Counted from the stretch's first letter, positions 19,888-30,789 are shown. The stretch: DNA of 64,000 nucleotides from Steroidobacteraceae bacterium (GCA_035720205.1 DASTOQ010000118.1:6546-70545); one strand, 5' to 3'. The notes: generated from the letters alone by a model not told the origin. Numbers and translations are program-made.

Positions 19888-20511
19888 ATGCCCGCGTCGA
19901 ACCGTTTCCTGCCGTCCTGGCGCAGCCTTTCCGCCTCGCTGGTCCTCGCCTGCGCGCCGCTCGCCGGCGATGCCATGGAGGCGCCCGCCTCGGCCCTCGC
20001 CGAAGGCATCGACCAGCTGCGCCAGACGGTCGGCACCTGGAACGTCACGACGACGCAGTATCGCGACGACGGCACCATCGCCAGGACCGTTGCCGGAACC
20101 TACCAGTTCGAGTGGGTCGTGCCGGATCGCGTGATCTCGGGCCGCTCGAACATCCCGATGCTGCGGGAGATGTCGGGCATCCTGATCTACGTCAACGAAC
20201 AGCGTGCGGCGCTCGAGATGGCGCAGGTGGACGCCAATGGCCAGCTCACGGTCCTGAGCGGCGCCGCGGGTAAGGAACTGCGCAGCACCGCCCCGGCCGC
20301 GGCGCCGGACGGCTCGAAGCGGCAGCTGCGCGTCACCCGGCTGAATGCCGGGCCGGATTGCTTCGAGTCGCGCCTCGACGTGAGCACGGACGGCGGCATG
20401 AGCTGGCGGCCCGGCCAGTACCAGCGCTTCGTGCGCGCCAAGGGCGAGGCCGGCGAAGCCGCCGGCCTGCGCTACCGCAAGCGCTCCCAGAACTACGTCC
20501 CCCTCACCTGA
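19888..20511 (+). CDS. Hypothetical secreted protein
   Basis: 207 aa. GAGGGAGG SD before the ATG and a signal-like N-terminus. I did not recognise a family. Confidence 0.6.
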   Translation: MPASNRFLPSWRSLSASLVLACAPLAGDAMEAPASALAEGIDQLRQTVGTWNVTTTQYRDDGTIARTVAGTYQFEWVVPDRVISGRSNIPMLREMSGILIYVNEQRAALEMAQVDANGQLTVLSGAAGKELRSTAPAAAPDGSKRQLRVTRLNAGPDCFESRLDVSTDGGMSWRPGQYQRFVRAKGEAGEAAGLRYRKRSQNYVPLT

Positions 20512-20580
20512 TAAAGGGGACGCATCCCATTTAGAAAGGGACCGCTGCTCCCCTTTCTAAATGGGATGCGTCCCCTTTAT
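20511..20580. repeat. REP-like element, locus 2: perfect 30-bp inverted repeat with a 10-nt loop (likely bidirectional terminator)
   Basis: ATAAAGGGGACGCATCCCATTTAGAAAGGG (20511-20540), loop ACCGCTGCTC, then the exact reverse complement (20551-20580). It spans the gap between two convergent stop codons. Confidence 0.85.
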
Positions 20581-21011
20581 TGGCGGGCGGGGACAAGGAG
20601 GACCGGCACGGTCGAGCGGCGGACCACGCCTTCGGCGACGCTGCCGACCAGGATATCGTAGACCGCGCCGTGGCCGTGGCTGCCGAGCACGATGAGCCCG
20701 GCGCCGAGCTTCTCCGCCTCCGCGATCAGCGTTTCGACCGTCGCGCCCTGCAGCAGCAACGCGGTCGTGTCGATCTCATCCGCGCGCAGGTCTTCCGCCA
20801 GCCGCTGCAGCTGCTGGTGCCGGGCACGGTGTTCGACCGCAACCTGTCCCCGCACGACGTCAGGCCCGGCGCTGTAACCGACGAAATCCGGCTCCGGTGG
20901 CGCGACGTGAACGAGAATCACCTTCGCAGGCATGGTCGCCGCGATGCGCCGCAGCGCATCCGTCACGTCCTGGGTGACCGCCGAGAAATCCACCGCCGCC
21001 AGGATGTTCAT
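20577..21011 (-). CDS. Universal stress protein (UspA family)
   Basis: MNILAAVDFSAVT... ending GSHGHGAVYDILVGSVAEGVVRRSTVPVLLV. Its ATG overlaps the upstream TGA (ATGA). Confidence 0.85.
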   Translation of the reverse strand: MNILAAVDFSAVTQDVTDALRRIAATMPAKVILVHVAPPEPDFVGYSAGPDVVRGQVAVEHRARHQQLQRLAEDLRADEIDTTALLLQGATVETLIAEAEKLGAGLIVLGSHGHGAVYDILVGSVAEGVVRRSTVPVLLVPARQ

Positions 21012-22081
21012 ACGCCCGATCTCCGCGCGAGATGATCGCGCAACCAGGGCACGTCCCGCATCAGTAATTCCACGTAAGCGCGCGTGAACTTCAGCTGCGA
21101 TTCGCCCGAAAGGTGCGACCATTCCGGCACCACGAGCCCCCGCATCGACTCGTGGTCCTCGAAGTGGATGCCGTAGGCGCCGGTCACCGCGAGCAGCCGG
21201 TCCCAGGTCCGGGCCCGCGGCTGGCCCTGCCGCTCGCTCTCGAGGTAGAGTCCCGCCGACGGCGCGCGGATGAACACGACCTCGCCGCCACGTGCGCGGA
21301 TCATGTCCACGTGCGTCTTCGTCTCCGCGACGATGCGCTGCGCGTCGGCCTCTTCGATGCGCGGCTCGCCGTTGAACGGACCCCAGACCCAGCGTGCATG
21401 GTCGCGCAGGTACTCGTCCGTCTCGAGCCGCGGCCACATGGTGGTCTGGCGGTCCTCGAAGACCTCGGCGATTTTCCACACGTCCCGGACTGGCCCGCGC
21501 ACGCCCGGGCGGTCCTTGAGCGGGGCCGCGCGGTCGATCAGGTTGCCGAGGCGATAGGCGTCGTCCAGGAATGCGAGGTGGCGCTGCAGCTCGATCCAGA
21601 CGAGGTGCCCGAAACGCGACGACGGCGATTCTTCGTGCCAGAAGGCGGTGAGCCCGGCGAACACCGGGATCCCCGGCCAGTCGGTAAAGAAGATGTCCGG
21701 CGTGACGCCGACCACCAGCAGGCCGGCAAAGTCGCTGTTCACGGCCAGGTCCTTGAGGTGCGGCCGCGGGTTGGTGCCCGGCAGCGCGAGCTGGATCGGC
21801 CGCAGGCCGCTCAACTGCTCCCAGGTGTCGAGGTTCGTGTCGAACAGGATGCGCGAGGATCCGATGATCACCACGCCGTCGTGCTCCCCGGTCGCGACCT
21901 TGCGCCGCTCCACCGCCCAGTGCGACCTGCTGTCGTCGAGGTCGCCCGCGCGCAGGCCGAGCCGGCGCATCTGCAGTTCCCAGGCGGCCACGGCCGCGAC
22001 CACCAGCGCCAAGGCGAGCCACGCGGCGGCGCGCCAGCGATGCTGTGGAATGACCCGCGTGATGACCTCGTCCGGGGTCAC
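21008..22081 (-). CDS. Membrane-anchored protein, paralog B; putative SGNH/DltD-like accessory of the MBOAT
   Basis: I prefer the GTG at 22081. It overlaps the paralog A stop as GTGA, and the N-terminus then aligns with paralog A (TPDEVITRVIP vs QDEVTTRVVP). One N-terminal TM. Conserved GSSRILFDT, LPGTNP and E-x-SHLS. Confidence 0.7.
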   Translation of the reverse strand: MTPDEVITRVIPQHRWRAAAWLALALVVAAVAAWELQMRRLGLRAGDLDDSRSHWAVERRKVATGEHDGVVIIGSSRILFDTNLDTWEQLSGLRPIQLALPGTNPRPHLKDLAVNSDFAGLLVVGVTPDIFFTDWPGIPVFAGLTAFWHEESPSSRFGHLVWIELQRHLAFLDDAYRLGNLIDRAAPLKDRPGVRGPVRDVWKIAEVFEDRQTTMWPRLETDEYLRDHARWVWGPFNGEPRIEEADAQRIVAETKTHVDMIRARGGEVVFIRAPSAGLYLESERQGQPRARTWDRLLAVTGAYGIHFEDHESMRGLVVPEWSHLSGESQLKFTRAYVELLMRDVPWLRDHLARRSGV

Positions 22082-23148
22082 GATCCCGCCGCCGGGCGCC
22101 GGTCGAGCCACGGATGTCGCTGCACCAGGACGGCGACGTAGGCGCGCGTGAAGCGCGTCGCCGATTCACGCGAGAGATGCGACATCTCGACCACATCGAG
22201 CCCTTGCATGCCGGCATGGTCCTCGAAATGGATGCCGAAGGAACCGGTCTGCTCGAGCAGCGCATCCCAGGTTACGGCGCGCGGGACGACCTGCAGTTCC
22301 CGCTCGTACAGGTCGCCGTCGGACGGCGCGCGGACGAACACGACATCGCCGCCGCGGCTGCGGATCTTCTCGACGTCCGCGCGTACGGAGTCGATGATGG
22401 CCGGGAACCGGCTGGCGTCGACGGGCCGGCCGAAATTCAGCCGCCACACGGCCTTCGCGTGCTCCCGCAGCCGCGCGTCGGTCTGCAGCCGCGGCCACAG
22501 GAAGTACTGGCGGTCGTCGAAACTCTCCGACAGCTTCCAGACCCTCATGTGCGGCCGGCGAACGCCGGGCCGATCCGGGATGTCCAGCTGATCCACAAGC
22601 GTGCCGAGGCGGTACTGGTCGTCGAGGAACGCGAGGCGACGCGAGAGCAGCAGCCCGACCTGATGACCGAAACGCCGTGACGGCGACTCCTCGCGCCAGA
22701 GCGTGTTCAGTTCCAGGTACTCGGGAAACGCCGTGGTGAAGTCCGTGAAGAAAACGGCGGGTGTCACGCCGACGATCACCAGCCCGCTGAAATCGCCGTC
22801 CTCCGCGAATCCGCGCAGCAGGAACCGCGGGTTGGTGCCGGGCAATGCGAGCTGGATCGGCCGCCGGCCGGTCAGTTCCTCCCAGGCGTCCAGATCGGTG
22901 TCGAACAGGATCCGCGAAGAGCCGTGGATCACGACGCCGTCGTGCTTTCCGGCGGCGATCTTGCGCCGTTCCACCGACCAGTGCGAGACGCCGTCGTCGA
23001 GATCGCCGGCACGCAGGCCGAGCCGGCGCATCTGGACTTCCCATGCGGTCACGCCGGCGACGATCAGCGCCAGCAACAGCCAGCCGATCGCGCCCCAGCG
23101 CACCGCCGGGACTACGCGTGTCGTGACCTCGTCCTGCCGCAGTTCCAT
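22078..23148 (-). CDS. Membrane-anchored protein, paralog A; putative SGNH/DltD-like accessory of the MBOAT
   Basis: 356 aa. About half the residues are identical to the downstream paralog by eye. Same conserved blocks. Confidence 0.7.
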   Translation of the reverse strand: MELRQDEVTTRVVPAVRWGAIGWLLLALIVAGVTAWEVQMRRLGLRAGDLDDGVSHWSVERRKIAAGKHDGVVIHGSSRILFDTDLDAWEELTGRRPIQLALPGTNPRFLLRGFAEDGDFSGLVIVGVTPAVFFTDFTTAFPEYLELNTLWREESPSRRFGHQVGLLLSRRLAFLDDQYRLGTLVDQLDIPDRPGVRRPHMRVWKLSESFDDRQYFLWPRLQTDARLREHAKAVWRLNFGRPVDASRFPAIIDSVRADVEKIRSRGGDVVFVRAPSDGDLYERELQVVPRAVTWDALLEQTGSFGIHFEDHAGMQGLDVVEMSHLSRESATRFTRAYVAVLVQRHPWLDRRPAAGS

Positions 23149-23158
23149 CGTGACGGCC

Positions 23159-24586
23159 CTAGAACTGGAAGTAGATGAAAGCCTCGCCCGAGCCCTGAGT
23201 CGTGATCACGGCGAACAGCATCGCCGCCACCACCAGTCCGGTCAGCCACCACGGCGCGCGCGCGACGACCTCCTCGAGCGTACGCCTGCGCATCAGCCAC
23301 TGGATCGCGACCATGCCCGCGACGATCACCGCGACCTTGACCATGAACACGGTGGGCAGGACCGCCACCGGCTCCGCGACCAGGCCCGCCATGCCCGTCA
23401 GGATGCGCGCCGCACCCTCGAAGGTCTCGGCCCGGAAGAACACCCAGGTGATGTTGACCAGGAAATAGGTCGCGAGCGCGAGCGCGAACCGGTTCCACGC
23501 ACCGGCAGGATCGCCCTGCACGCCGCTGCGCGAGCGGATCCAGCGCTCGGCCGCGAGGTAGAAACCGTGCAGCCCGCCCCAGACCACGAAGGTCCAGCTG
23601 GCGCCGTGCCAGAGCCCGCCGAGCAGCATGGTCAGCATCAGGTTGACGTAGGTGCGCGCCTCGCTGCCGCGGTTGCCGCCCAGCGGGATGTACAGGTAGT
23701 CGCGCAGCCAGGTCGAGAGCGAGATGTGCCAGCGCCGCCAGAAGTCGGAGAAGCCGATCGCCGCGTACGGCATGCGGAAGTTGTCCGGCAGCGCGAAGCC
23801 GAGGCAGAGCGCCACGCCGATGGCGATGGTCGAGTAACCGGCGAAGTCGCAGAAGATCTGGCCCGAGAATGCCAGCGTGCCCAGCCAGGCGTCGGCGAAA
23901 CCGACCGGCTTGTTCGAGCCGAACACCGCGTCCGCCGAGGCCGCGAGTCCGCTGTCCGCGATCACGATCTTCATGAACAGGCCGAGCACCATGAGCGCGA
24001 GACCCCAGAACAGCTGGTCGCGCGTCGCCTGCACCGGGCGCGCGAACTGCGGCACCAGCTGGCCGGGACGCACGATCGGGCCCGCGACCAGCTGCGGAAA
24101 GAAGGTCACGAACAGCGAGAAGTCGAGGAACGAGGTCAGCGGCTTCGAGCGCCCGAGGTAGACGTCGAGCGTGTATGCCATGGTCTGGAAGGTGTAGAAC
24201 GAGATGCCGACCGGCAGGATGATGTTCCATTCGGGCGGCACGTAGGTGACGCCGACCGAGGCCATCAAGGCCTGCCAGTTCGCGAGCAGGAATTCGCCGT
24301 ACTTGAAGAACGCCAGGAAGCCGAGGTTGACGGCGAGCGAACCGAGCAGCCACGCGCGCCGCAGCGCCCGGCTCTTCTCGCGCGCGTTCCAGAGGCCGCG
24401 CGCGACATACCAGTCGACCAGGGTCGAGATCCACAACAGGATGACGAATGGCGGATTCCAGGCCGCGTAGAACAGGTAGCTCGCGACCAGCAGGTTGAAT
24501 TTCTTCGCGGTCCAGGGCAGCGGCAGCCGGTGCAGCAGCAATACCAGTGCGAAGAACACGACGAACGTGAGCGAATTGAAGACCAA
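23159..24586 (-). CDS. MBOAT-family membrane-bound O-acyltransferase (AlgI/DltB/PatA-like)
   Basis: 475 aa, polytopic. Typical AlgI-like N-terminus (MVFNSLTFVVFF...) and the conserved region GISFYTFQ ... FFPQLVAGPIVR ... WHISLSTWLRDYLYIPLGGNR ... GLWHGASW. Confidence 0.9.
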   Translation of the reverse strand: MVFNSLTFVVFFALVLLLHRLPLPWTAKKFNLLVASYLFYAAWNPPFVILLWISTLVDWYVARGLWNAREKSRALRRAWLLGSLAVNLGFLAFFKYGEFLLANWQALMASVGVTYVPPEWNIILPVGISFYTFQTMAYTLDVYLGRSKPLTSFLDFSLFVTFFPQLVAGPIVRPGQLVPQFARPVQATRDQLFWGLALMVLGLFMKIVIADSGLAASADAVFGSNKPVGFADAWLGTLAFSGQIFCDFAGYSTIAIGVALCLGFALPDNFRMPYAAIGFSDFWRRWHISLSTWLRDYLYIPLGGNRGSEARTYVNLMLTMLLGGLWHGASWTFVVWGGLHGFYLAAERWIRSRSGVQGDPAGAWNRFALALATYFLVNITWVFFRAETFEGAARILTGMAGLVAEPVAVLPTVFMVKVAVIVAGMVAIQWLMRRRTLEEVVARAPWWLTGLVVAAMLFAVITTQGSGEAFIYFQF

Positions 24587-24751
24587 CGAATCGCCTTTTC
24601 TGGTTGGTGTTTGGCGGCGCCCGCGAGTATGCGCAGCCTCTCGCTCTTGTGCAAATGCGTGGATAGGAGGACGCTTCGCTACTTGCGCGTCGGAGCGGCC
24701 AGACCGGATCCGACGGATTACGTTTAATAATCAACAGCTTAGGGGAACAGC

Positions 24752-25261
24752 ATGCGTCAGTTGAATTGGCTTGCGGCCGCGCTCGCGGCGGCCCTGGTGG
24801 CAGCGGGCTGCGCCGCGAAGGCACCGGCCGTGGACACCGCCGCAGAGGCAGAGGCGGTGCGTGAACGCTCGGCGGAGTGGCTGAGGCTTGCCCAGGCGAA
24901 GGATGCCGCTGCGATCGCGGGCGGCATCTACACCTCCGACGCGGTGACGATGTTCGACGGCCAGATCCGCAAGGGCGCGGCCGAGATCCAGGCCGGGATG
25001 GAGGCCGAAACGGCTGCCATGCCGAACTCGACCATCAGCTGGACCACCAGCGACGTGCGCGTCGCATCTTCCGGCGACATGGCCTGGGAGACCGGCTCCT
25101 GGACCTTCGACCCGGATGGCGATGGCGCACAGCCGGCCATCAACGGCGAGTTCATCACCGTCTGGACCAAGGTCGACGGCACCTGGCGCGCGGTGGCCGA
25201 CGCGGGTACTTCGCCGAAGACCGAGGAACCGGCCGCGCCCGAGGCCGAAACCGCTGCCTGA
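24752..25261 (+). CDS. SnoaL/DUF4440-like (NTF2 fold) lipoprotein
   Basis: 169 aa. Lipobox LVAAGC. NTF2-like core (DMAWETGSWTF...NGEFITVWTKVDGTWRAV). Confidence 0.65.
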   Translation: MRQLNWLAAALAAALVAAGCAAKAPAVDTAAEAEAVRERSAEWLRLAQAKDAAAIAGGIYTSDAVTMFDGQIRKGAAEIQAGMEAETAAMPNSTISWTTSDVRVASSGDMAWETGSWTFDPDGDGAQPAINGEFITVWTKVDGTWRAVADAGTSPKTEEPAAPEAETAA

Positions 25262-25322
25262 GCCGGGCGCCGCCGGCCACGCCGCCTCGCCCGGGCTGCT
25301 GCGCGGCCTGACGCGTCTCGAC

Positions 25323-26574: not shown

Positions 26575-27552
26575 TCAGTCCGGCCAGGCGCGATCCGCCA
26601 GCCGGCAGCTGCCGCCGGCTGGCATCAGCTGCTGAATGCGGTCACGGGAGTCCTCGACCGATTTCATCAGCGGCGTGCCGGCGGCGAACGCCGCCGCACG
26701 CTCGAGCTGACGGCGGGCCTCGTCGAAGCAGCCGGCGCCCGCGAGCGTGAGTGCCAGGTTGTTGCGCGCCGCCGCATCCTGTGGCGCGAGCAGGATGGCG
26801 CGCAGGTACTTGTCCGCCGCGGCCTCGAGCTCGCCATCCGCGAAGGCGACGTTGCCGCGGCCGAGCCAGAACAGCGGCTCTTCCGGCCAGCGCGCGATGG
26901 CGGTGTCATAGGCGGCCGCCGCCGCGCGGCGCTCGCCCGCCGCCTCGAGGCCAGCCACGGCCTCCAGGTATCGATCCGGGGTCGCGTGCGCCGGAATGGC
27001 CTCCGGAGGAAGCACGGCGATCGCCCAGCGCCCGGCGCGGTGCCAGCTCGCGGCGAAGCGCTGCCAGCGCATCTCGAGCCGCTGCCTGGTGCCCGAACGC
27101 AGGGTCGCGACGTTCCTGTCCGCGTCGTAGCCGACCAGCACGGCGTAGTGCCAGCGCGGCAGGAGATCGGTGCCGAGATTCTGCAACAGCAGCACCGGCC
27201 GGCCTTCGGAGAGCTCCGCGACCAGCGCATCGCCGTGCCCCGGCAGCAGGTACGCGACGCGGCCATGCCGGCGCGCAGCGCCGATCAGCTCCGCCTGCAG
27301 CGAGCCCTTGCGCTTCGGGATGAAGGTCTGGGGAGCGAGCGTGGCGGGTGCGACGTCAATACCGCTCGCGCCCAGCACGGTCGCGAGCGCGGCCGGGCCG
27401 CACTGGAAATCTTCCTGTGGATGGAACGGGACGGAGGCCAGCTCGATCGAGCGCGGCGCCGCCGGCGGCAGGCCCTCGGCGAGGCGCGGCGAGCTGGCGC
27501 AGCCGGCGAGCAGCGCAGCGAGCGCCGCCGCCGGCAGCGCCGCGAATCTCAC
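26575..27552 (-). CDS. PA2778-family cysteine peptidase (C39-like) with C-terminal TPR repeats; lipoprotein
   Basis: 325 aa. Lipobox LLAGC. QCGPAALATVL (papain-like Cys) and HYAVLVGYD (His). TPR-like C-terminal half. Confidence 0.7.
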   Translation of the reverse strand: MRFAALPAAALAALLAGCASSPRLAEGLPPAAPRSIELASVPFHPQEDFQCGPAALATVLGASGIDVAPATLAPQTFIPKRKGSLQAELIGAARRHGRVAYLLPGHGDALVAELSEGRPVLLLQNLGTDLLPRWHYAVLVGYDADRNVATLRSGTRQRLEMRWQRFAASWHRAGRWAIAVLPPEAIPAHATPDRYLEAVAGLEAAGERRAAAAAYDTAIARWPEEPLFWLGRGNVAFADGELEAAADKYLRAILLAPQDAAARNNLALTLAGAGCFDEARRQLERAAAFAAGTPLMKSVEDSRDRIQQLMPAGGSCRLADRAWPD

Positions 27553-27932
27553 GCCTTCTTGAAGATGTCGATGACGCCGGTGAACTCGAGGATCATCAGC
27601 ACCAGGAACACGATACCGATGACGGCCAGCGCATCGCCGCCTGCCGGCGCCTGCTCCAGTTGCTCCCCGAGCAGGGCGAGTTCCGCGTCTGTCAGCGCGG
27701 CCAGGCGGCCGTCGACCTCGGCGGGATCCACGCCCAGCGCCACCATGCGTTCGCGCACGTCGTCGCGCGCGAGCACCCCGCGCACGGCCGCGAGCGGGTC
27801 GGCCGCCTGGGCCGCCGCGACGGCCTCGGCCGTCCCGACGATGCCTGCAGCCGCGGGCGCCTGCAGGCCGAGCGAAACGAGACTCGCGCTCACGAGTACC
27901 GCACAGGCGCGGCGAAACCGTTCAATACCCAT
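27549..27932 (-). CDS. PA2779-family small protein (signal peptide plus C-terminal TM segment)
   Basis: Start at MGIERFRRACAVLV (27932) with GGAGGTG upstream. It ends ...APAGGDALAVIGIVFLVLMILEFTGVIDIFKKA. The stop overlaps the peptidase ATG. Confidence 0.65.
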   Translation of the reverse strand: MGIERFRRACAVLVSASLVSLGLQAPAAAGIVGTAEAVAAAQAADPLAAVRGVLARDDVRERMVALGVDPAEVDGRLAALTDAELALLGEQLEQAPAGGDALAVIGIVFLVLMILEFTGVIDIFKKA

Positions 27933-28035
27933 CGAACACCTCCGGTCAGGTGGGACCAGGCGCCAAAATACCACGAGTGGCGCCCGCGGGCAGCGCCGGC
28001 GGTCCCCATAGTCGCCGGATGGCGACGCAGGGAAC

Positions 28036-30789
28036 TCAGAATCGGTAGGCGAAGTCGATCTTGGCCGTCGTGCCGATCTTCTGCTCGAGCACGTCCACGC
28101 CACCCTGTTCGATGACCGTGTCCTCCCCCAGCAGGTTTTGCAGGCGGAGCTTCAGGCTCATCCGGTCGGTCGGATGGAAGGTGTAGACGAGATCGAGCGA
28201 ATTGAATGGCTGCTCACGCGCGTCGTCGGCGCCGCCTCGACCGGCGAAGAAGATCCGCTCGCTGTACATGTTGTACGCCAGCGAGGCGCTGTGCATGCCG
28301 CCAGGCGAATCGAAGCCGAGCTGCAGGTTGACGACCAGGTCCGAGTGCTGCGTCATCGGCCGCTTGTTATTGGTCAGGTTCGGGGCTGCGCCGCCGATCG
28401 TGATCTCGGAATCACTGACCGTGACGTTGCCCGACAGGAAGAACGCGTCGGTCCAGCCGCCGCCGCTCAGGAAACCCAGCCCCTTGAGCCCCTCGACTTC
28501 CAGGCCGTAGAGCTCCGCCGACTCGGCATTGATGAAGGTCAACCCGATGTTGTCGTCGGAGCCCGGGGCCTCGATGGTCTCGATCGGATTCGTGATGTCC
28601 TTGTAGAACAGCGACAGCGTCAGGTTGTCGCCGCCGGCGAAGAACCACTCGGCGCGCAGGTCGAAGTTCGAGAGCTCCGAGTCGAGCAGGTCCGGGTTGC
28701 CGCGCACGCGCGCCTCGGTCAGCGGGTCGATGTAGGTCGCTCCCGATACCTCGCGCAGGTCGGGCCGCGCCACCGTCTCGCTCCAGCCGAAGCGCAGCTG
28801 GAACTCGCCGGCCCAGAAACCGGGAATCATCCGGGTCACCGCCAGCGCCGGGTAGTAGTCATCGCCGGACTTGGTGATCGACCGCAGGTATTCGCCGAGG
28901 TCGTCGCCCTCGAACGGGATCTTGCCGATAGCCGGGTCGAACTGCAGCGGGTCGACCGGCACCGCGAGGCGCTCGAAGTCCTCCCAGCGCACGCCGCCGG
29001 TGAGGCGCCAGCGGTCGTTGAAATTGACGTCCATCTTGCCCCAGACGGCGTCCACCGTCTCGCCGGCGAGATAGCTCTCGGTGCCGATGCCGCCGATCGA
29101 CAACTCGAAGCCGTTCGTCGGGTCCAGGATGTTCGCGTCCGTGAACACCTGCCCCGGCGTGCCGACCAGGATCGGCTGGGCCGCCGCGGCCTGCGTGCCG
29201 AACTGCAGCTGCGTCTGGATGTAGCCGCGGCCCTTCTCGTAGTAGTCATAGCCGCCGCTCACCTCGACCAGGTTCGCACCCCAGGTGAACGGGAGCGCGA
29301 TCTTCGAGCCGTAGCTGGTCGCGGTGTCCTCGAGATCCGTGAAGCGGTACTCGGCCGCCGACAGGGACGAGCGGATCGACGTGCTCAGTACCTCGTCGGT
29401 GACCGGGTCCACGGTTTCGTTCGCCGTGAACAGCATCTCGCTGGGAATGTCGGTGCGCGCCTTCGATTCGGAGTAGTACCAGTCCACCGCCAGGTCACGG
29501 GCGATGGCCGGGTTCAGCCAGCCGGGCTTCCAGCGTTCCAGCAGCTCGCTGGTCGCCTGGCCGAGCTTGTGCTCGCCGCGCAGCTGGTAGAGCTCGAGCT
29601 CCCTCTCCTCGAAGCGGATCCGGTAGTTTCGCAGGCCGATGCCCGACGACTGCGGGAAGTTGGCGTTGTGGCCGCGCGTCAGCGAGGCCTCGTCTTCGCT
29701 GTTGCGCAGATAGATCGCCGTGGCTTCGACATGGTGCTCTTCGGCGAAGTCCACGCCGACGCCCAGCGAGCCGGTCATCACGACCTGGTTGGTCGTGCGC
29801 AGCTGGAAGTCGCGGTCGTTCTCCGGGTCCAGCACGGACCGAAGGGTGCGCTCGCGGTTGCGCCAGCTGTTCGAGTAGTCGCCGAGCGCGAGCATGCCGA
29901 TCTTCCACTGCTCGGCGTCGCCCAGGTACCAGCTGTTGCCGATGGAAGCCTCGATCGACTTGTCCGGCTCGATGGATTTCGACTGGAAATCCACGTCACG
30001 GTACAGGCTGGTCGCGAGCTGGCGGTTGATCGCCTGGGCCTCCGCGAAGCTGTGGAACTGCCCGTCCTTCAGCAGCTCGGTGAAGATGCTGGTCGAGCTG
30101 ATGTTGCCGCGGTAGGTCTGGATCGCGTCCTGGATCGCCGCCGGCAGCGCTCGCGTGCCGTCGTCGGTGCCGAGATCGTCGTCGCCGCCGCCCTGGTACG
30201 TCAGGCCGTCGCCCGAGCTCTCCGAGTTCGTTCCGAGGCCCACCTGGAAGTTGAAGTGGAAGTCGTCCGGCAGCGCGCGCGTGCGGATGTCGACGTTGCC
30301 GCCGCCGAAGGCGGCCGGCTGGTCCACCGAGTAGCCTTTCTGGATCGAGATGTTGCCGACGATCTCGGCCGGGAACAGGTCCATCGGGATCACGTTGCGC
30401 GTCAGGTCCGGCGACGGCACGTAGGCGCCGTTGACCGTCGTGCTCGAATAACGCTCGCCGAGCCCGCGGATGTAGATGAACTGGTCACCGACCAGCGTCA
30501 CGCCGGGCAGCCGCCGCAGCGCCAGCGACACGGTGCTGTCGCCGACGCGGCTGATCTGCTCGATGCTGATCAGGTCGGCGACGACTTCCGCGTCGATGCG
30601 CTCCTGCAGGATCTCGTCCGCCGCCGACCGCTGACGGCCGACCACTTCGACGTCCTCGAGCTGGGCCGGCGCCGCTGCCGCCGCATCCGCCTCGTCGCCC
30701 TGCGCGACCGGCACCATCAGGGTGCCGGCCAATGCCGATGCACCGACCAAGGCCCGGCGCACGGCCGCGGCCAGCGATATCCCGTTCAT
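28036..30789 (-). CDS. TonB-dependent receptor (large, Xanthomonas/Caulobacter-type)
   Basis: Start at MNGISLAAAV (30789) with GGGGGAGG upstream. Plug motifs VEVVGRQ, FIYIRGLGERYSSTTVNG and DLFPAEIV. C-terminus ...DFAYRF. Confidence 0.9.
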   Translation of the reverse strand: MNGISLAAAVRRALVGASALAGTLMVPVAQGDEADAAAAAPAQLEDVEVVGRQRSAADEILQERIDAEVVADLISIEQISRVGDSTVSLALRRLPGVTLVGDQFIYIRGLGERYSSTTVNGAYVPSPDLTRNVIPMDLFPAEIVGNISIQKGYSVDQPAAFGGGNVDIRTRALPDDFHFNFQVGLGTNSESSGDGLTYQGGGDDDLGTDDGTRALPAAIQDAIQTYRGNISSTSIFTELLKDGQFHSFAEAQAINRQLATSLYRDVDFQSKSIEPDKSIEASIGNSWYLGDAEQWKIGMLALGDYSNSWRNRERTLRSVLDPENDRDFQLRTTNQVVMTGSLGVGVDFAEEHHVEATAIYLRNSEDEASLTRGHNANFPQSSGIGLRNYRIRFEERELELYQLRGEHKLGQATSELLERWKPGWLNPAIARDLAVDWYYSESKARTDIPSEMLFTANETVDPVTDEVLSTSIRSSLSAAEYRFTDLEDTATSYGSKIALPFTWGANLVEVSGGYDYYEKGRGYIQTQLQFGTQAAAAQPILVGTPGQVFTDANILDPTNGFELSIGGIGTESYLAGETVDAVWGKMDVNFNDRWRLTGGVRWEDFERLAVPVDPLQFDPAIGKIPFEGDDLGEYLRSITKSGDDYYPALAVTRMIPGFWAGEFQLRFGWSETVARPDLREVSGATYIDPLTEARVRGNPDLLDSELSNFDLRAEWFFAGGDNLTLSLFYKDITNPIETIEAPGSDDNIGLTFINAESAELYGLEVEGLKGLGFLSGGGWTDAFFLSGNVTVSDSEITIGGAAPNLTNNKRPMTQHSDLVVNLQLGFDSPGGMHSASLAYNMYSERIFFAGRGGADDAREQPFNSLDLVYTFHPTDRMSLKLRLQNLLGEDTVIEQGGVDVLEQKIGTTAKIDFAYRF

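Follow-up and report, generated by a model that had tools for sequence, protein, structure and literature searches.

Pairs in which an MBOAT protein works with an SGNH-fold partner constitute the general bacterial route to the acylation of surface polymers, a modification that governs resistance to lysozyme and antimicrobial peptides, autolysin control and biofilm properties. Here, we analyze an operon that probably encodes such a pair, with the partner gene in two tandem copies, in a stretch of 64,000 nucleotides (nt) from a Steroidobacteraceae bacterium (GCA_035720205.1 DASTOQ010000118.1:6546-70545; hereafter the window, within which positions are counted from the first letter). In the PatA/PatB system, the MBOAT protein PatA acetylates the tyrosine of its own C-terminal motif from acetyl-CoA, and PatB, the SGNH partner, receives the acetyl group from the resulting acetyl-Tyr peptide (PMC12148441). 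This FxYxxF sequence is the acyl-shuttle motif of PatA-type MBOATs, in which the function of the acyl-Tyr has been defined and the acyl-Tyr tail is periplasmic; its fusion to the enzyme is typical of MBOATs that use acyl-CoA (PMC12148441). In the Dlt system, by contrast, the motif sits on the separate microprotein DltX and DltB is devoid of a fused tail (PMC12148441), while in DltD an N-terminal membrane helix precedes the triad of Ser74, Asp373 and His376 (PMC13653941). Circular permutation, which places D-x-H ahead of the serine, characterises AlgJ and AlgX (PMC4148444).

An earlier note on this DNA, drawn up from the nucleotide sequence alone, had described an operon of an MBOAT gene, two paralogs (A and B) and a gene for a universal stress protein (Usp), connected by a 10-nt gap followed by GTGA and ATGA overlaps. 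Open reading frame (ORF) calls agree with this layout to the base, placing four genes of the same direction on the minus strand within positions 20577–24586:

23159..24586, minus strand: MBOAT-family membrane O-acyltransferase, AlgI/PatA-like (fused-shuttle type); 475 amino acids, TTG start, TAG stop
22078..23148, minus strand: paralog A; 356 amino acids, ATG start; N-terminal membrane helix and predicted DltD-like SGNH-fold domain
21008..22081, minus strand: paralog B; 357 amino acids, GTG start; architecture as in paralog A
20577..21011, minus strand: universal stress protein; 144 amino acids, ATG start

The TAG stop of the MBOAT gene is followed by the 10-nt gap (ggccgtcacg) and the ATG of paralog A, whose stop overlaps the GTG start of paralog B as GTGA; the stop of paralog B, in turn, overlaps the ATG of usp as ATGA. 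The same four genes, with the same lengths and overlaps, are annotated in a related metagenome-assembled genome (MAG; contig JAHCAM010000016.1), which shares 88% DNA identity with the window in this region and whose annotation matches the GTG start and length of paralog B.

Both outer genes of the operon had been named correctly. The MBOAT protein matches Pfam PF03062 with 101.9 bits (cut-off 27; E 5.6e-29), and the stress protein matches PF00582 with 89.6 bits (cut-off 24; E 3.5e-25). Among proteins of solved structure, the best sequence match of the MBOAT protein in the PDB is DltB (E 5.5e-25). Assignment to the DltB equivalog (TIGR04091) was rejected at 154.7 bits vs. a cut-off of 375. Two elements of the MBOAT protein bear on its function:

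23717..23731, minus strand: WHISL motif with the universally conserved MBOAT histidine, His287; aligns with the WHMSL motif of DltB
23162..23179, minus strand: FIYFQF hexapeptide at the C-terminal end (residues 470–475), an FxYxxF motif with Tyr472 as the predicted acyl carrier

The functional role of the conserved MBOAT histidine has been described (PMC12148441). A tail of the form FIYF[QA]F was present in 68 of 70 partner-linked MBOATs. In agreement with the earlier note, no polysaccharide synthase or carrier-protein gene was found within ~10 kb of the operon, either in the window or in the related MAG, and the same holds for the dltA, dltB, dltC and dltX families. The absence of a nearby carrier-protein gene can be explained by the acyl-shuttle tail being fused to the MBOAT protein itself.

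Paralogs A and B share 60% identity over 345 residues (E 7e-127), far above chance. The three blocks that had been reported as common to them are indeed found in both, namely GSSRILFDT (residues 76–84 in A and 74–82 in B), LPGTNP (102–107 and 100–105) and E-x-SHLS (321–326 and 320–325). More than 1,000 close relatives were identified, and an exhaustive profile search (E ≤ 0.001) retrieved 2,313 clusters at 50% identity, of which 437 reached E ≤ 1e-30. Nearly all members are named 'hypothetical protein', RefSeq entries among them (WP_162349486.1, WP_143011827.1, WP_407908371.1); the sole exception is a Pseudoxanthomonas gei member that bears the UniRef label 'SGNH/GDSL hydrolase family protein'. 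Literature searches retrieved no paper describing this partner family. Scanning of both paralogs against Pfam and NCBIfam gave no match, phmmer searches of the PDB gave chance matches only, and comparison with the solved PatB structures gave no sequence match at E ≤ 10. Matches of isolated members to the SGNH (PF19040) and ALGX Pfam models, with E-values of 0.02–0.05, were rejected as not significant; the ALGX model (PF16822) was touched by one of 80 diverse members (E 0.021). Membership of the partner in the PatB, DltD or ALGX families was likewise rejected by sequence tests.

The fold, for which an SGNH/DltD-like architecture had been suspected, was addressed by structure prediction. AlphaFold models of paralog A reached a predicted local distance difference test (pLDDT) score of 93.4 and a predicted TM-score (pTM) of 0.91 when built on 80 diverse relatives, and a pLDDT of 81 when built on 39 close relatives. 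Both models show an N-terminal membrane helix (residues ~18–42) followed by five parallel strands alternating with helices (strands at 72–75, ~98, 123–127, 268–273 and 304–307 in the model with the higher pLDDT), with a ~110-residue insert (~134–245) between strands 3 and 4. In Foldseek searches of the PDB, both models retrieved DltD as the top match (E 2e-5 and 2.4e-4), followed by rhamnogalacturonan acetylesterase (RGAE), PatB (E 1e-3 to 1e-2), TesA and other SGNH enzymes. The high-probability matches were nearly all SGNH proteins, and TM-scores amounted to 0.59–0.62 when normalised to compact SGNH targets. Together, the models point to an SGNH-like core fold of the partner, of the three-layer alpha/beta/alpha kind with a five-stranded parallel sheet, albeit that of a distant member.

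To locate candidate catalytic residues, conservation was counted in 80 diverse relatives with ~25–60% identity to paralog A. Three motifs of paralog A are central to what follows:

22897..22923, minus strand: block I, GSSRILFDT, with Ser78 as the predicted nucleophile (80/80 relatives) and Arg79 (79/80)
22171..22188, minus strand: block V, EMSHLS, after strand 5, with Glu321 and His324 as the predicted acid and base
23023..23043, minus strand: juxtamembrane motif WEVQMRR, with Glu37 (invariant, 80/80) and Arg41 (76/80)

In the model, Ser78 lies at the N-terminus of the helix directly after strand 1, and in members from Lysobacterales and Sphingomonas block I contains the canonical GDS. Ser323 and His324 are invariant (80/80), and position 321 is occupied by Glu in 73 and by Asp in 7 relatives, which provides candidate residues for the anticipated Ser-His-Asp/Glu triad. 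The E-x-x-H spacing equals that of the D-x-x-H motif in SGNH enzymes and in DltD. The corresponding residues of paralog B are Ser76, Glu320 and His323, and all motifs are retained in this copy. In the earlier note, the shared blocks were tentatively equated with SGNH blocks I, III and V. While the first and the last of these assignments hold, LPGTNP follows strand 2 in the model and corresponds to block II, with Gly104 (75/80) at the position of the oxyanion-hole glycine; Asn106 of the same motif is not conserved and is mostly replaced by Ser. In the partner, the predicted SGNH fold and blocks I, II and V are thus recognizable, and block III is not. Sequence conservation and models combined, the partner is predicted to carry a triad in the classical order, Ser...[E/D]-x-x-His, and, like DltD, to have a membrane helix N-terminal to it.

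Beyond the predicted triad, several charged residues are highly conserved. Glu37 and Arg41, at the end of the membrane helix, would dock on the MBOAT protein or its shuttle tail. Arg79, adjacent to the nucleophile, and Arg273, which follows strand 4, are near-invariant and situated on or next to predicted active-site loops; Arg193, Arg213 and Arg290 of paralog A are near-invariant as well. These arginines hint at an anionic acceptor or at binding of the C-terminal carboxylate of the shuttle peptide. Family-wide, the residues that flank the membrane helix carry a slight positive net charge on its N side and a negative one on its C side. Conserved cysteine pairs, looked for in the partner family as a sign of periplasmic location, were not found. 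Members from Lysobacterales and Sphingomonas possess a longer cytoplasmic N-terminal tail before the membrane helix, which comprises ~45 residues and begins with a conserved MPSS[IT]SS (e.g. locus L054, 5902–7083; L065, 5890–7074; L075, 5887–7095); the window proteins lack this tail.

Whether homologs are linked to MBOAT genes elsewhere was assessed by scanning one genome per species; from the 203 relatives obtained, 79 loci were retrieved. These derive from Steroidobacteraceae, Lysobacterales (Pseudoxanthomonas gei, Lysobacter, Luteimonas, Tahibacter), Sphingomonas, Rhizomicrobium, Myxococcota and an acidobacterial MAG. A locus counted as linked if an intact, same-strand MBOAT gene ended no more than 200 nt before the partner start, and an upstream flank of at least 1.3 kb was required. 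Of the 68 loci with such a flank, 63, from several phyla, have an intact MBOAT gene directly upstream of the partner, and two more have a fragmented one. The linkage extends to a Saprospiraceae member (Bacteroidota) and one other distant member, in both of which the order is reversed, with the MBOAT gene downstream and still adjacent. The earlier note had named two outcomes that would refute its view, predicted structures lacking an SGNH-like fold or a triad, and homologs unlinked to MBOAT genes elsewhere; neither was obtained, and its main interpretation is supported. In the MAG contigs of loci L025, L034 and L066, the MBOAT frame is split into several ORFs, which may reflect pseudogenes or sequencing or assembly frameshifts.

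When neighbouring genes were searched for clues to the acceptor, none apart from the MBOAT gene was recurrent across lineages. Neighbours confined to single lineages comprise a sulfotransferase gene (Rhizomicrobium), a FabH-like gene, DUF6875 together with a FAD monooxygenase, a resistance-nodulation-division (RND) pump and methyltransferases. The conserved unit is the MBOAT–partner pair. In two Rhizomicrobium MAGs, a same-strand gene directly downstream of the partner overlaps it (L058, 7094–8068; L071, 7085–8074); the former matches the sulfotransferase family PF00685 and the latter falls into the same sequence cluster, hinting that the target in Rhizomicrobium may carry more than one modification.

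Set against the described systems, the locus most resembles PatA/PatB of Neisseria and Campylobacter in its overall design, each being a two-gene Gram-negative module of an MBOAT protein with a fused C-terminal FxYxxF tail and an adjacent partner with an N-terminal membrane helix and an SGNH fold (predicted here), with PatB among the top structural matches. Neither system includes a carrier protein or an adjacent polysaccharide synthase. In contrast to PatB, however, the partners of the window show no detectable sequence similarity to that protein and contain the ~110-residue insert, which separates block III from block V; the partner is not followed by an ape1-like esterase gene, and peptidoglycan is only a candidate acceptor.

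The closest structure, in turn, is DltD, with which the partner shares the N-terminal anchor, a GSS-type block I, a Gly ~26–30 residues later, [ST]-P-x-x-F following strand 3, a sizeable insert and, close to the C-terminus, a block V of the form acid-x-x-His. The motifs of partner and DltD are collinear (GSSR/GSSE, RPIQLA.G/RPFLLG.G, TPxxFF/SPQWF, FVRxPS/FVIPPVN and E.SHL/D.IHL, respectively); since an hhalign comparison was not significant, this is to be read as a correspondence of motifs and not as proof of homology. Differences include the lack of a Pfam DltD match and the predicted acid, which is mainly Glu here and Asp in DltD. Moreover, the MBOAT protein is not a DltB equivalog, its shuttle motif is fused rather than placed on a DltX microprotein, DltA and DltC are not encoded near the operon, and the hosts are Gram-negative whereas the Dlt system is Gram-positive. 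The partner family is accordingly best described as DltD-like in architecture and predicted fold without being a member of the DltD family.

The AlgI and WssH systems have in common with the locus an AlgI-like MBOAT protein with the same kind of FxYxxF tail, and AlgI/AlgJ/AlgX provides a precedent for two SGNH-like partners serving one MBOAT protein. In contrast to AlgJ and AlgX, the partner shows the classical order, Ser first and E-x-x-H last. Also, unlike in AlgI/AlgJ/AlgF/AlgX and WssH/WssI/WssG/WssF, there is no AlgF/WssG-like gene, and the genes are not part of a polysaccharide synthase operon. The mechanism class, an MBOAT–SGNH relay, is already established, and it is the partner family that is new and widespread.

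Based on the observed gene order and coupling, the residue invariance, the linkage to MBOAT genes and the shuttle motif, together with the predicted fold, we read the operon as a two-component MBOAT–SGNH acyl relay of the PatA/PatB type with a DltD-like, previously unannotated partner family, and put the probability of this reading at roughly 70%. From these observations we infer the chemical steps, the topology, the donor and the acceptor as follows. The MBOAT protein would take an acyl group, most likely acetyl, from cytoplasmic acyl-CoA and use His287 for its transfer to Tyr472 of the FIYFQF tail at the periplasmic face. The tail would hand the acyl group to Ser78 of the membrane-anchored paralog A (Ser76 in B), activated by His324 and Glu321, and the acyl-enzyme would then give it to a hydroxyl of an extracytoplasmic acceptor.

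Several results weigh against this assignment. No sequence method ties the partner to any SGNH family: searching the PDB with the family profile returned chance matches only, with DltD not found at E ≤ 10; a Pfam scan of the 80 diverse members yielded no significant match and no DltD (PF04914) among the families listed at E ≤ 0.1; and an hhalign comparison of the family profile with DltD, represented by four sequences recovered from PDB alignments, gave a non-significant probability of 0.3%. The Foldseek E-values are modest (best 2e-5) and whole-chain TM-scores are ~0.3. At the block III site, after strand 3, the 80 relatives have G-V-T-P without a conserved Asn; PatB and AlgJ likewise deviate from the canonical oxyanion hole (PMC12148441, PMC4148444). 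An N-in, C-out topology of the partner is weakly suggested by the charge bias and by analogy. In three loci of one gammaproteobacterial lineage, the partner has no adjacent MBOAT gene and is preceded by a saccharopine-dehydrogenase-like gene for an NAD(P)-binding protein (L047, 4502–7047; L051, 3874–6460; L064, 4497–7012); here, the partner may be an orphan, or its MBOAT protein may be encoded elsewhere. Finally, no finding points to a specific donor or acceptor.

As to the two copies of the partner, the earlier note had taken the duplication to suggest two acceptor or donor specificities, a view that fares poorly against the distribution of the copies. Two partner genes occur in 14 of the 79 loci, all from Steroidobacteraceae or close relatives, and the remaining 65 loci have a single one. 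A neighbour-joining tree resolved three subclades within the Steroidobacteraceae group, of which each genome possesses one or two copies in varied combinations, and each subclade occurs alone beside an MBOAT gene in some genome. The nearest relatives of the window's paralog B, for instance, sit in loci without an A copy (L008, L009, L014). Only two alignment positions separate A-type from B-type proteins, position 53 (Gly/Ser) and position 141 (Phe/Ile). The latter is located in the loop after block III, close to the substrate contact of DltD. Given the few two-copy loci, the stand-alone subclades and the mere two separating positions, we regard the duplication as specific to this lineage and dispensable for the mechanism. 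A and B may differ in specificity, but nothing found speaks positively for this; the paralogs are probably alternative terminal transferases that are served by the same MBOAT protein and arose by duplication inside Steroidobacteraceae. The same distribution bears on a model in which the two act in sequence, one taking the acyl group from the MBOAT protein and passing it to the other, which modifies the polymer. Such a division of labour has a precedent in AlgI/AlgJ/AlgX, where one MBOAT protein works with two SGNH-like partners of separate roles (PMC4148444), and all catalytic residues are kept in both paralogs. With single-partner loci common and each subclade found alone, however, one copy is sufficient, and both copies are membrane-anchored and 60% identical, with their clades set apart by no more than the two positions above. 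We thus consider sequential action unlikely.

That the partners instead remove or edit acyl groups as esterases of the Ape1 or DltE kind, leaving the transfer to the MBOAT protein itself or to a protein encoded elsewhere, seems quite improbable. Most SGNH-fold enzymes are hydrolases, several of the top structural matches (RGAE, TesA) are esterases, and AlgJ displays esterase activity in vitro (PMC4148444). Yet all bacterial MBOAT systems characterised so far employ the neighbouring membrane-anchored SGNH protein as the transferase (PMC12148441), the coupled genes are tightly linked in 63 of 68 loci in a module devoid of another candidate transferase, and the MBOAT shuttle tail exists to feed an SGNH serine. 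The rank of DltD among the structural matches, along with the GSS-type block I and N-terminal anchor common to both proteins, could also be taken to indicate a Gram-negative Dlt-like pathway that moves D-alanine or another aminoacyl group. Against this stand the lack of DltA, DltC and DltX genes within ~10 kb, an MBOAT score of 155 bits where the DltB equivalog cut-off is 375, and the fused FxYxxF tail of acyl-CoA-using MBOATs, which is not found on DltB (PMC12148441); we regard such a pathway as very improbable. Hardly more credible is a role of the partners as non-catalytic or cytoplasm-facing proteins that only scaffold or regulate the MBOAT protein. Three Arg residues after the membrane helix render the positive-inside rule ambiguous for the window proteins, but the charge bias seen across the family speaks for a C-out orientation, the SGNH catalytic positions hold an unvarying Ser and His and either Glu or Asp across ~25–60% identity, and the acyl-Tyr tail that would have to be met by the partner is periplasmic in PatA-type MBOATs (PMC12148441).

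To return to the acceptor of the acyl relay, the module stands alone in most genomes, and its hosts have very different surface polymers; the guess that follows from these two observations is a common envelope component. Candidates are peptidoglycan and other glycans or lipids that are ubiquitous and probably anionic. Sphingomonas produces glycosphingolipids in place of lipopolysaccharide, and the presence of the stand-alone module in this genus, too, makes a common component such as peptidoglycan a reasonable guess. A more far-reaching proposal, which we offer tentatively and hold to be doubtful, is that of a distinct and widespread Gram-negative pathway of envelope acylation. Its acceptor would be neither alginate, cellulose, the N-acetylmuramic acid of peptidoglycan nor teichoic acids, but, for example, the head group of a membrane lipid or an anionic glycan of the periplasm; Glu37 and Arg41 would provide the acyl-Tyr tail with a docking or catalytic element of a new kind; and the Steroidobacteraceae paralogs, controlled by Usp, would route one and the same acyl donor to different acceptors.

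Usp itself contains the motif G-x2-G-x9-G-[ST] of the ATP-binding class, here as G-x2-G-x9-G-S (GSHGHGAVYDILVGS, residues 110–124). Among the 69 loci with enough downstream flank, 24 have a usp gene after the partner, and we consider the protein an accessory because of this limited occurrence. As a cytoplasmic Usp of the ATP-binding type and a lineage-specific addition, it may couple the system to stress.

If the relay is correctly assigned, a large family annotated as hypothetical gains a predicted fold, a probable catalytic triad and a role as a partner enzyme. Its hosts are soil and water Gammaproteobacteria, Alphaproteobacteria, Myxococcota, Acidobacteriota and Bacteroidota. In Gram-negative species, self-shuttling MBOAT proteins of the PatA/AlgI type would be paired with a DltD-like architecture that is otherwise familiar from the D-alanylation of teichoic acids in Gram-positive bacteria. 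The identity of the modified envelope molecule can be tested in cultured hosts, namely Pseudoxanthomonas gei, Sphingomonas sp. YR710 and Lysobacter claricitrinus.

The operon is flanked by two further features:

24587..24751, minus strand: intergenic region and, from the gene layout, presumed promoter region, from which the MBOAT gene and a DUF4440 gene diverge
20497..20594, no strand assigned: inverted repeat with 44-nt arms (86% complementary), a 28-nt perfect core (20513–20540 and 20551–20578) and a 10-nt loop

A promoter scan of the region 24587–24751, upstream of the MBOAT gene, did not find a sigma-70-like consensus. The divergent gene (24752–25261, plus strand) encodes a DUF4440/SnoaL-like putative lipoprotein and lies inside a ~626-bp stretch (24657–25282) that has no counterpart in JAHCAM010000016.1, where the spacing between a permease gene and the MBOAT gene is only ~100 bp. 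By sequence comparison, this stretch is an indel directly upstream of the presumed promoter region of the operon. Farther away, a DUF6627 gene (27549–28103, minus strand) is followed by a gene for a C39-like peptidase domain with TPR repeats (26575–27552, minus strand); this pair is kept in the related MAG beside a TonB-dependent receptor gene and appears unrelated to the operon.

At the opposite end, the inverted repeat covers the stop codons of both usp (minus strand) and a convergent ORF of 207 amino acids (19888–20511, plus strand). It occurs once in the 64-kb window and is devoid of a T-run. It probably forms a hairpin at the 3′ end of the operon with a role in termination, and may act as a bidirectional terminator or as a protein-binding palindrome.

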